Shown: one piece after another, positions 44,701 to 48,284 of the stretch
Position numbering within the stretch: the stretch's first letter is position 1
Layout of the letters: every line of letters begins with the position of its first letter
Translations under genes and position numbers: made by a program
Source of the DNA: Candidatus Micrarchaeota archaeon
GTDB taxonomy: Archaea; Micrarchaeota; Micrarchaeia; Anstonellales; Bilamarchaeaceae
Assembly (NCBI GenBank): GCA_043821365.1
Contig: JBDRCX010000006.1
Location: forward strand, 64,001 to 128,000
DNA: 64,000 nt
Direction: 5' to 3'
The notes under the pieces: model-generated
The model's database searches: none
Told to the model about the DNA's origin: nothing
Seen by the model: the letters and a program-made list of their open reading frames with translations, nothing else

Positions 44701-46020
44701 ATGGATTTAGGTAAAAAACTCAGAGAAGCATTGGCAAAACTCACCAATAGGCCATATGTTGACGAAAATGATGTCAGAGCATTGATAAAGGACCTTCAAC
44801 GGGTGCTGATATCATCTGATGTCAGTGTAAAGCTAGTATTTGCCTTATCAAAAAGAATCGAAGAAAGAGCATTAAAATCAAAAAAGATGGACGCACTTAC
44901 ACTCAAGGAACACGTCACTAAAATTGTCTATGAAGAACTTGTGTCATTAATGGGAGAAAGTTACACTGCAAGATTGGATAAACACAAAATCCTCATGTCT
45001 GGACTTTATGGTAGTGGTAAAACAACCTCTTGCGCCAAGCTTGCACATTTCTATAAAACAAAAGGCTTGAGTGTTGGTCTTGTGGCAGCAGATACTGATA
45101 GACCTGCAGCACAGGAACAATTAGAACAGCTTTCCAAAACAGTTGGAACTGCTTTTTATACGATTAAAGGAGAGAAAAACCCGGCAAAAATTGTAAAAGA
45201 TGCGCTGAAAAAAGCAAAAGAAGACGTAATAATCGTAGACTCTGCTGGAAGAAGTGCATTTGACGGACATTTGGTAGAAGAACTAAGGGAAATTGCAGAT
45301 GTATTAAAACCAGAAGAATGTTACCTTGTTATAAGTGCTGATCTTGGACAAATTGCAGGCAAACAAGCAACAGAATTCAATGCAGCTGTTCCTCTTTCTG
45401 GTGTTTTTGTTACCAAGATGGATGGTTCAGGTAAAGGGGGGGGAGCATTAAGTTCAGTTGCAGCATCCAATGCAAAAATTTCATTTGTTGGTATTGGGGA
45501 AAAATCATCTGACATTGAAGTGTATAATTCTGAAAAATTTGTTGGTAGGCTTTTGGGTGTTCCTGATATCGGAGCCTTAATGGAAAAGATAAAAGAAATA
45601 TCAAAAGAAACTGACCTTAAAAAAATAGAATCAGAAGAACTTACAATTGAATCTTTTTATGAACAATTGAAAGCAGCTAAAAAACTAGGTCCACTTAGTA
45701 GTGTTTTCTCAATGATAGGTGCTGTTGATGTACCAAAAGAAATGGTACAACAAAGTGAGGACAAGCTGAAGAAATTTGAATGTATGATAAATTCGATGAC
45801 AAAGCAGGAAAAAAAAGATGCAAAGATATTGAAAAATAATGCAAATAGGATAGCAAGGATTGCAAAAGGAAGCGGTTGTACAGAAAAAGAAGTCAGAGAA
45901 TTTTTATCTCAATTTGAAAAGATGGAAAAAATGATGAATATGTTTAAGCACAACCGTGGATTTAGAAAAAAGATGGAAAAAATGATGCAAGGCGGAAATG
46001 TTAATCTTCCTAACATGTAA
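44701..46020 (+). CDS. srp54: Signal recognition particle protein SRP54
   Basis: GLYGSGKTT, DTDRPAA, DSAGR, TKMDG; Met-rich M domain with RIARIAKGSG. Confidence 0.97.
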   Translation: MDLGKKLREALAKLTNRPYVDENDVRALIKDLQRVLISSDVSVKLVFALSKRIEERALKSKKMDALTLKEHVTKIVYEELVSLMGESYTARLDKHKILMSGLYGSGKTTSCAKLAHFYKTKGLSVGLVAADTDRPAAQEQLEQLSKTVGTAFYTIKGEKNPAKIVKDALKKAKEDVIIVDSAGRSAFDGHLVEELREIADVLKPEECYLVISADLGQIAGKQATEFNAAVPLSGVFVTKMDGSGKGGGALSSVAASNAKISFVGIGEKSSDIEVYNSEKFVGRLLGVPDIGALMEKIKEISKETDLKKIESEELTIESFYEQLKAAKKLGPLSSVFSMIGAVDVPKEMVQQSEDKLKKFECMINSMTKQEKKDAKILKNNANRIARIAKGSGCTEKEVREFLSQFEKMEKMMNMFKHNRGFRKKMEKMMQGGNVNLPNM

Positions 46021-47784: not shown

Positions 47785-48171
47785 GGTGAGGGGTAAACTG
47801 GTACGTTTTTTGTTTGTTTGAGGGGGCACGCCCCCTCGTACCCCCGAAAGGAGGTGTGGAACCTTGGTTCCACAAACAAACTAAAATGAGGAAGTTCTGC
47901 CCTCTGCGAGGATAACAGGCTTTAAGGGCTTGAGAGTGCTACAGAAACGATACTTTTTTGTTTAAGGGCTGCCCATTGTACCCCGTTCGCGGGGTGCGGG
48001 GTGTCCCAGCAAACAATAAAAGATGCAACGCGTACTCTTTTATCCAATGACAGAGCAAGGCCTTTGGGCCGCTTTCTGAAATTCGCAAGAATTTTGGAAC
48101 CTTTTGATCTAGTAATAGATCAAATTGAAGTCAAATCCAGTAAATACAAAAGGCAGACTATTCCCCTCACC
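47785..48171 (+). ncRNA. rnpB: RNase P RNA
   Basis: P1 GGTGAGGGG/CCCCTCACC; P2 ACTGG/CCAGT; GAGGAAGTTCTGCC pairing with GGCAGAC (P4); P5 CTCTG/CAGAG; P7 GGATAA/TTATCC; conserved ACAGAAACG and ACAAAAGG loops. Confidence 0.92.
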
Positions 48172-48284
48172 TTCTACTTTTTAGGAAAAAGTGGAGTAAA
48201 AACTGATTATAAAAGAACCAAAAAATTCAATATTTAAATCTTCCACTACATTAAAGTTTCTAACACATTAAAGAGGATAGAAAT

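Follow-up and report, generated by a model that had tools for sequence, protein, structure and literature searches.

A type-M-like RNase P RNA of a Micrarchaeota archaeon carries a two-hairpin module at the position of bacterial P18

The RNA component of ribonuclease P (RNase P) of a Micrarchaeota archaeon is encoded at positions 47785-48171 (+) of the stretch of DNA analysed here, a window of 64,000 nt (positions 64,001 to 128,000 of contig JBDRCX010000006.1, assembly GCA_043821365.1). That this is the functional, expressed RNase P RNA of its host, a member of the DPANN archaea, is almost certain. The RNA has a reduced core, best described as type-M-like by convergence, and carries a module of two hairpins, here called helices A and B, in the joiner J15/2. 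It is also nearly certain that both helices are real and that, in nine or more genera of a single family, compensatory changes have preserved them. The module is inherited in step with its host and is a real yet dispensable peripheral element. It gives RNase P RNA, a well-known ribozyme, a structural form not described before, and it is optional, as about half of the genus lacks it. We lean towards the complete statement that a type-M-like RNase P RNA is joined by a module acting as a tertiary brace; for the role taken by itself, a dispensable tertiary brace is the likeliest that we infer, at about an even chance.

The identification rests on a match to the archaeal RNase P family of Rfam, the presence of all conserved regions (CR), a P4 helix with a bulged U, the single copy of the gene, and the genes for the protein subunits Rpp29, Rpp21 and Pop5, all encoded in the same genome (G000). 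No RNase P RNA was detected within the window when Rfam was applied at the gathering threshold (84 bits), and a permissive search was therefore required. With permissive filters, the family RF00373 covers 47852-48172 at E = 5.6e-9 and 37.5 bits, which bears out the initial annotation's call of an RNase P RNA while placing it below the threshold. The shortfall is due to the insertions and not to doubtful identity, since relatives without the module score 97-107 bits and pass, whereas carriers of the module reach 32-68 bits. The gene encodes the sole RNase P RNA of the genome (one match in the whole 1.2 Mb) and is located in a 530-nt gap that separates two protein genes, with a G+C content above that of its surroundings.

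The P4 helix of archaeal RNase P is formed by GAGGAAGUUCUGCC (47888-47901) and GGCAGACU (48152-48159) with one U bulged, and the exact GAGGAAGUUC of its 5' strand is present in every relative. Inside P1 and P2, the joiners follow in the correct order, CR-II as ACAGAAACGA, CR-III as GAUGMAACG and CR-IV as AGUCNAAU, and GCAAG precedes the P15 hairpin. All relatives keep GUGAGGGG and CCCCUCAC of P1, while their P2 reads GGUAGC/GCUACC, so that the pairing is maintained despite the change in sequence. The fold of the whole RNA beats shuffled sequences (z = -6.2), and its minimum-energy structure includes P15, helix A and helix B.

Transcripts were found in a groundwater metatranscriptome (X2) that contains 79% of the sampled words; the runs holding host DNA are groundwater metagenomes. 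Contig 7 of this metatranscriptome (290 nt, depth 77) corresponds to window positions 47864-48153 with 0 mismatches and 0 gaps, and includes J15/2 and the two additional hairpins as well as P15 and the P12 cassette. On either flank the RNA cover drops to zero, while the DNA runs extend further. Another RNA contig, of higher abundance, stems from a relative similar to genome G003 and enters, beyond 48078, that relative's own helices A and B.

Type M RNAs lack P8, lack L15, P16, P17 and P6, and have an uninterrupted P10/11 (PMC1874661). All three structural features are found in the RNA at 47785-48171, in agreement with the type M-like core proposed in the initial annotation, and the P10/11 helix is not notably elongated. 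The cmscan alignment to RF00373 deletes the P8 hairpin of the model. The single hairpin between P7 and P10, the minimal P15 and the two extra hairpins were all recovered where the annotation had placed them, as read from the sequence, and so was the lack of a P19, which follows from the mere 10 nt (CCAGU and AAAU) between AGUCAAAU and the 3' strand of P4. Type M has been reported from Methanococci and Archaeoglobi only (PMC7191817). The host is instead a member of the Micrarchaeota and not of Methanococcales or Archaeoglobales descent, so the reduction was probably independent. In 20 sampled RNAs from seven other families of the order, a bare P15 hairpin is followed directly by CGC-UU-AGUC, which makes the reduced catalytic domain an order-wide trait. 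Moreover, a survey of 298 archaeal RNAs describes independent losses of P8 and of P16/P17/P6 in several archaeal lineages (PMC12974513). The type-M-like core is therefore not the novelty.

The module is 52-56 nt long and interrupts J15/2, with the CGC after P15 on its 5' side and AGUCAAAU on its 3' side. This places it between the 3' side of P15 and the strand that corresponds to bacterial J18/2, and thus at the P18 position, where two extra helices had been claimed. RNAs were extracted from 22 congeners by means of the invariant P4 strands (P4-to-P4 span 141-344 nt). The distance from GAGCAAG (J5/15) to AGUCMAAU (J15/2) in these RNAs is bimodal, with 13-18 nt where P15 stands alone versus 60-71 nt where two hairpins are added.

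In a structure-blind MAFFT alignment of 15 carriers, compensatory double changes occur in 19 of the 22 predicted pairs. Realignment with R1, the covariance model used to search for the module, was based on 17 orthologous modules and two second-site copies; 95.4% of the cells are paired, and both sides have changed in 22 of 23 pairs. This alignment is fitted to the model, and the MAFFT result is independent of it. None of 500 shuffles matches any of five covariation measures, and sliding the partner by 1-3 columns reduces pairing to 32-57%. The covariation that the initial annotation had called for is thus present, and it extends to each helix separately: all 11 pairs of helix A are altered on both sides (96.4% of cells paired), as are all nine pairs of helix B (92.7%).

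The stem lengths are maintained at about 11 bp in helix A and 9-12 bp in helix B. The loop of helix B is a GNRA tetraloop in 25 of 30 RNAs from nine genera (GUAA 18, GCAA 6, GCGA 1), while the sequence of its stem turns over completely. The loop of helix A conforms to GNRA in 19 of the 30, and is otherwise UUCG, UAAA, CAAA or others. The initial description of both helices as GNRA-capped therefore holds for the RNA in the window (GCAA and GUAA), but among relatives it is consistent only for helix B. Junction nucleotides also recur across genera, with CC-UU at the foot of helix B followed by AUUGA or AUGGU.

A plain DNA search reached homologs within the genus only, so covariance models were needed for a wider reach. 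A model of the conserved core from P4-5' to P15 (R2) finds RNase P RNA throughout the genus (40 of 40 genomes) and in most of the family (81 of 99 genomes, 16 of 23 genera). With R1, the module was identified in 18 of the 40 genomes of the genus, and in a sample of 151 genomes from the phylum all matches were confined to the family of the window's host, with none in the 123 genomes of other families. A two-hairpin insert at this exact site is present in at least nine genera (g1, g15, g19, g21, g22, g24, g91, g94 and g96), several of which are mixed for its presence, and was not seen in any sampled member of g16, g20, g90, g92 and g100. About 31 of about 73 parsed family RNAs carry it; these family tallies combine two parses in which several RNAs were mis-parsed and about ten unparsed, so the counts are lower bounds. 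The module is absent from all 20 sampled RNAs of the seven sister families of the order.

On an SRP54 tree of 30 genomes, the module character requires at least nine changes among 27 scored tips, no fewer than with shuffled labels (mean about 10), and the well-supported branches alone force four to five. Sister species differ, as in G000, G023 and G018, which carry the module, and their respective sisters G024, G048 and G005, which lack it. Pairwise alignments show that sister RNAs are otherwise near-identical and separated by clean whole-unit indels. In G023, 54 nt are inserted immediately after GCGCCGC, with no border repeats beyond 2-3 ambiguous bases. Variants of the module are shared by SRP54 clades, for example helix B as GGCCGC-GUAA-GCGGNC in G010, G049 and G023. 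Because the site and the architecture are constant and the variants follow SRP54 clades, one early origin in the family followed by recurrent precise loss fits the data; by parsimony, all nine changes can be losses. The frequent loss shows that the module is dispensable.

As a brace, the module would work from the periphery. Both helices would emerge from the junction of the catalytic domain, at the site of bacterial P18, and helix B would make contact through its well-conserved G(U/C)AA loop, docked either in the minor groove of some other ribozyme helix or on a protein subunit. The contact would lend rigidity to a core from which P8, P16/17 and P6 have disappeared, with helix A serving mainly as a spacer or strut of fixed length. 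Bacterial P18 is described (PMC12974513) as an interdomain brace between the catalytic (C) and specificity (S) domains that lies distal to the tRNA interface and docks into P8. We favour a brace on account of this analogy, of the GNRA loop of helix B, which is kept while its stem changes, and of the conserved stem lengths. Since P8 is gone, the partner of loop B must differ from the bacterial one.

Several observations weigh against a brace. No receptor was found for either tetraloop, and P8, the bacterial receptor of L18, is missing from the RNA at 47785-48171. Loop A is not a GNRA tetraloop in a third of the RNAs, and the statistics give no compelling support for a higher GNRA share in loop B than in loop A. 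The module has often been lost, even between sisters with near-identical cores, which implies that its benefit is small or dependent on conditions. Its presence tracks neither the loss of protein subunits nor the size of other insertions. Finally, an inert insert that merely stays folded would be expected to covary as well.

This last point leads to the alternative that the two hairpins are a neutral or selfish portable element in a tolerant site of rnpB, folded merely to avoid harm and of no use to catalysis or stability, which we consider rather unlikely. It draws on a second unit of the same layout, AUCYUGA-stem-GCAA-stem-GRGAG-C-UUU-stem-loop-stem-AAUGA, in the RNAs of G017, G018, G019, G023 and a second contig of G015. 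This unit shares with the J15/2 module its layout and several unpaired nucleotides, and it likewise shows clean presence or absence between sisters, being absent in G048. Look-alikes also exist outside rnpB according to R3, a module-only model built from nine in-register modules that misses atypical copies such as that of G018; they score 48.6 bits in G064 (the unit near a tRNA-Ala gene), 39.3 bits in the host's own genome (C6:327239-327293) and 31-33 bits for three further hits. An alignment of all copies (A4) was abandoned as the helix registers differed. Furthermore, the module is scattered over the tree no less patchily than shuffled labels would be, and P3 and P12 of the same RNA also carry hairpin cassettes, part of the one in P3 being a dispersed repeat.

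Set against this, the copy number is very low; a genome has between zero and three weak look-alikes, and G024, G048, G005 and G049 have none. There are no terminal repeats, and any target duplication amounts to at most 2-3 ambiguous bases. The two copies in the single RNA of G023 are far from identical, so no recent transposition has occurred there. All J15/2 copies occupy the identical position and their variants follow host clades, as expected from one old insertion rather than repeated ones, and conservation across genera extends to the junction nucleotides (CC-UU and AUUGA or AUGGU) and to the GNRA loop that caps helix B. Low copy number, lack of end repeats, divergent copies and a fixed site argue against ongoing transposition, but the module may have arisen long ago from a building block of this sort. 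Copies this few and weak, with no repeats at the indel borders, do not resemble a dispersed mobile repeat of the kind known as miniature inverted-repeat transposable elements or repetitive extragenic palindromes. A mobile element beside tRNA genes was also considered and rejected, given that only one of five free-standing look-alikes adjoins a tRNA gene.

A further possibility, to which we give a little less credence than to the neutral insert, is that the two-hairpin unit is a portable three-way-junction building block of DPANN archaea, grafted by transfer at the DNA or RNA level into at least two rnpB sites and into other unannotated structured RNAs. If so, a portable unit would convergently rebuild braces of bacterial type, at the P18 and P13/P14 positions, and would show expansion segments being gained and discarded between sister species.

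Five RNAs of the genus have the second-site unit, 48-50 nt long, in their S-domain, where it follows J12/13 (GAUGCAACGC) and occupies the site of bacterial P13/P14. The look-alike of the host genome, on the minus strand of C6 (L248:1501-1555), is intergenic and part of a run of at least five consecutive hairpins; it had no match in Rfam and no tRNA nearby, and may be an unannotated structured RNA. G064 contains three free-standing two-hairpin units (L246:1501-1556, L250:1501-1556 and L252:1501-1550), one of them 30 nt from a tRNA-Ala(CGC) gene. An outer stem turns two of the three into three-way junctions; in L250, each junction strand carries UGA. The RNase P RNA of G064 itself is apparently without an insert in J15/2.

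Less probable again is that the module serves as a platform for a protein (L7Ae/Rpp38, the short Rpp30 or a lineage-specific factor) and not as an RNA-RNA brace. Archaeal P12 and P3 expansions are reported as protein-binding sites (PMC12974513), Rpp30 is unusually short in the genus and was not detected in the host genome at E <= 0.001, and a layout shared by a second rnpB site and other loci is what a common protein-recognition module would give. On the other hand, no K-turn signature (a 3-nt bulge with tandem G-A pairs) is evident on inspection of the module, no candidate protein co-varies with it, and its presence is unrelated to the detection of any of the four subunits. Among the 40 genomes of the genus, Rpp29 was found in 39, Rpp21 in 40, Pop5 in 35 and a short Rpp30 in 30, and the non-detections are spread evenly over carriers and non-carriers. 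The only Rpp30 matches in the genus are reading frames of about 150 aa; they align with the C-terminal third of PF01876 and score under its curated cut-off.

Two forms of compensation were considered and rejected. The module does not compensate for a lost protein, as the presence of Rpp29, Rpp21, Pop5 and the short Rpp30 is independent of it. Nor do other RNA insertions stand in for it, since carriers and non-carriers do not differ in the lengths of the 5' region, the S-domain or J2/4; in this comparison total lengths are approximate, as automatic P1 detection went wrong for some RNAs, including that of the window.

The weakest alternative, in which the module is a bulge-helix-bulge intron or similar intervening sequence that is excised and missing from the mature RNA, agrees with the clean whole-unit indels between sister species, but it is highly improbable and was rejected because the dominant transcript contains the module: the gap-free RNA contig continues through it at depth 77, no joint skipping 48073-48128 occurs in any run, the relative's RNA contig retains its own module, no bulge-helix-bulge could be drawn at the module boundaries, and long covarying stems with conserved tetraloops are atypical of such introns. 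The RNA evidence consists of contigs, in which RNA ends are undefined and which a rare spliced form could escape. A joint that skips 68 nt at 47953-48022 represents the allele of a relative without the P12 cassette; it also occurs in the DNA runs and is not due to splicing.

The features of the locus are collected in Table 1.

Table 1. Features of the RNase P RNA locus and related two-hairpin units; positions refer to the window unless a locus is named.
Feature	Position	Strand	Details
RNase P RNA gene, complete	47785..48171	+	387 nt; RF00373 E 5.6e-9; core model R2 110 bits; RNA contig
TATA-like box, UUUUUAUUAA	47754..47763	+	putative archaeal promoter, read from sequence
P1 5' strand, GGUGAGGGG	47785..47793	+	pairs with 48163-48171; closes the molecule
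P2 5' strand, ACUGG	47797..47801	+	pairs with CCAGU at 48137-48141
P3 with GC-rich three-hairpin cassette	47804..47887	+	from the fold; missing or different in relatives
P4 5' strand (CR-I), GAGGAAGUUCUGCC	47888..47901	+	bulged U; pairs with 48152-48159
P5 5' strand, CUCUG	47902..47906	+	3' strand CAGAG 48051-48055; sequence and structure of model R2
P7 5' strand, GGAUAA	47910..47915	+	3' strand UUAUCC 48040-48045; sequence
P9, lone hairpin between P7 and P10, no P8	47916..47932	+	CAGGC / UUUAAGG / GCUUG
P10/11 5' strand, AGAGUGC	47933..47939	+	3' strand 48032-48038; 7 uninterrupted pairs
J11/12 (CR-II), UACAGAAACGAUAC	47940..47953	+	ACAGAAACG invariant in alignment A3
P12 with GC-rich multi-hairpin cassette	47954..48021	+	from the fold; a simple tetraloop hairpin instead in many relatives
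J12/13 (CR-III), GAUGCAACG	48022..48030	+	conserved GAUGMAACG
P15, plain hairpin GGCC-UUUG-GGCC	48059..48070	+	4 bp; no L15, P16, P17, P6; pairs covary as a hairpin
Helix A	48074..48099	+	48074-48084 / GCAA / 48089-48099; 11 bp, one U-G and one G-U among them
Helix B	48103..48124	+	48103-48111 / GUAA / 48116-48124; 9 bp
J15/2 (CR-IV), AGUCAAAU	48129..48136	+	AGUC.AAU nearly invariant; aligns to AGucGAAU of RF00373
P2 3' strand, CCAGU	48137..48141	+	pairs with 47797-47801
P4 3' strand (CR-V), ACAAAAGGCAGACUAU	48146..48161	+	ACARAAGGC in every relative
P1 3' strand, CCCCUCACC	48163..48171	+	pairs with 47785-47793
Five-T run	48178..48182	+	putative archaeal transcription stop
Second-site units	L019:1604-1653, L020:1420-1469, L010:1588-1636, L011:425-472, L166:1432-1479		found with R1 and R3

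The centre of the UUUUUAUUAA box lies about 26 nt 5' of P1, and the closest relatives have a similar AT-rich box and a AUAAUAUUGAU motif upstream. Downstream of P1, CUUUUUAGGAAAA is seen again in several relatives. The loop of the P9 hairpin is nearly invariant as CUUUAAGGG throughout the genus, whether the module is present or not, and could be a site of protein or tertiary contact. Part of the P3 cassette (query positions 63-102) is 91-95% identical to two other sites in G000 (C6:400991-401030 and C3:124501-124533) and also matches several sites in G024, which identifies it as a member of a dispersed hairpin repeat. Elsewhere in the molecule, G015 (L002) and G003 (L005) have two extra hairpins at the P8 position, between P7 and the P9 hairpin. 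Inserts at the P19 position, between the 3' strands of P2 and P4, measure about 100 nt in G003 and 25-60 nt in G010, G016, G021, G043, G044 and G053.

The srp54 gene (window 44701-46020) lies next to that of the RNase P RNA in most family genomes, frequently at a distance of less than 300 bp; in the window, two additional genes are placed between them. In the family members G192 (C29), G197 (C140), G081 (C20) and G199 (C63), SRP54 is encoded by reading frames of about 1000-1050 aa in which the SRP54 match is broken after residue 108 or thereabouts, suggesting an intein or another large insertion.

Our literature search returned nothing on the RNase P RNA structure of Micrarchaeota or DPANN archaea, or on an archaeal J15/2 element. 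The survey of 2026 that covered the 298 archaeal RNAs applied Rfam models to 349 archaeal assemblies and scored P18 explicitly (PMC12974513). It reports expansions in archaea at the tips of P12 and P3 alone, refers to expansion segment (ES) 2.1, which is P18, as "the bacterial expansion segment", and notes that, as a rule, deletions in archaea do not go together with added segments. Relatives that carry the module score below the Rfam gathering threshold, and the suggestion that this is an undescribed variant is upheld on both counts. As the carriers fall below the threshold, rnpB is probably unannotated in about half of these genomes, and models R1 and R2 recover such genes.

RNase P RNA is a textbook case of a ribozyme that trades RNA structure for protein. 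In the current picture (PMC12974513), bacteria diversified through added RNA braces, P18 among them, whereas archaea lost RNA parts and acquired proteins. The Micrarchaeota family studied here breaks with this picture, as a reduced archaeal core has gained a branch at the P18 site while the four core proteins have been kept. Sister species with near-identical cores, such as G023 and G048, provide natural deletion mutants for testing a peripheral brace.

The RNA can be compared with several known systems. Similar to type M RNAs such as that of Methanocaldococcus jannaschii, for which a cryo-EM structure of RNase P exists (Wan et al. 2019, as cited in PMC12974513), it has a single hairpin in place of P8 and P9, a hairpin P15, an uninterrupted P10/11 and the conserved strands CR-I to CR-V, and its host genome encodes the same protein subunits. 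It differs from type M in the two hairpins of J15/2, in optional cassettes in P3, P12, J2/4 and after J12/13, and in that module-bearing RNAs score under the gathering score of RF00373.

The module resembles bacterial P18 (ES2.1 in PMC12974513) in its topological site, its GNRA cap, its peripheral location and its sporadic loss, and a brace role is proposed for it. However, P18 is a single GNRA-capped helix that docks in P8, while the module is a pair of hairpins that forms a three-way junction with the core, in an RNA without P8. There is no evidence for common descent of the two, as the module is limited to one Micrarchaeota family and absent from its sister families.

There is also a likeness to P5.1 and P15.1 (P18.0) of bacterial type B and to P13/P14 of type A, which are lineage-specific helices that replace lost tertiary bridges, and the P13/P14 position is indeed occupied by a related two-hairpin unit in G017, G018, G019 and G023. 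The sequences, loops and partners are different, and the bacterial helices are fixed in large clades whereas the module is optional between sisters. Lastly, like the expansions at the tips of archaeal P12 and P3 (ES5.1/5.2 and ES3.1 in PMC12974513), the module is a lineage-specific addition to a reduced archaeal RNA, and the RNA in the window has such cassettes too. In contrast to them, it does not extend a helix but adds a new branch to the catalytic domain, within a joiner that is single-stranded and conserved.

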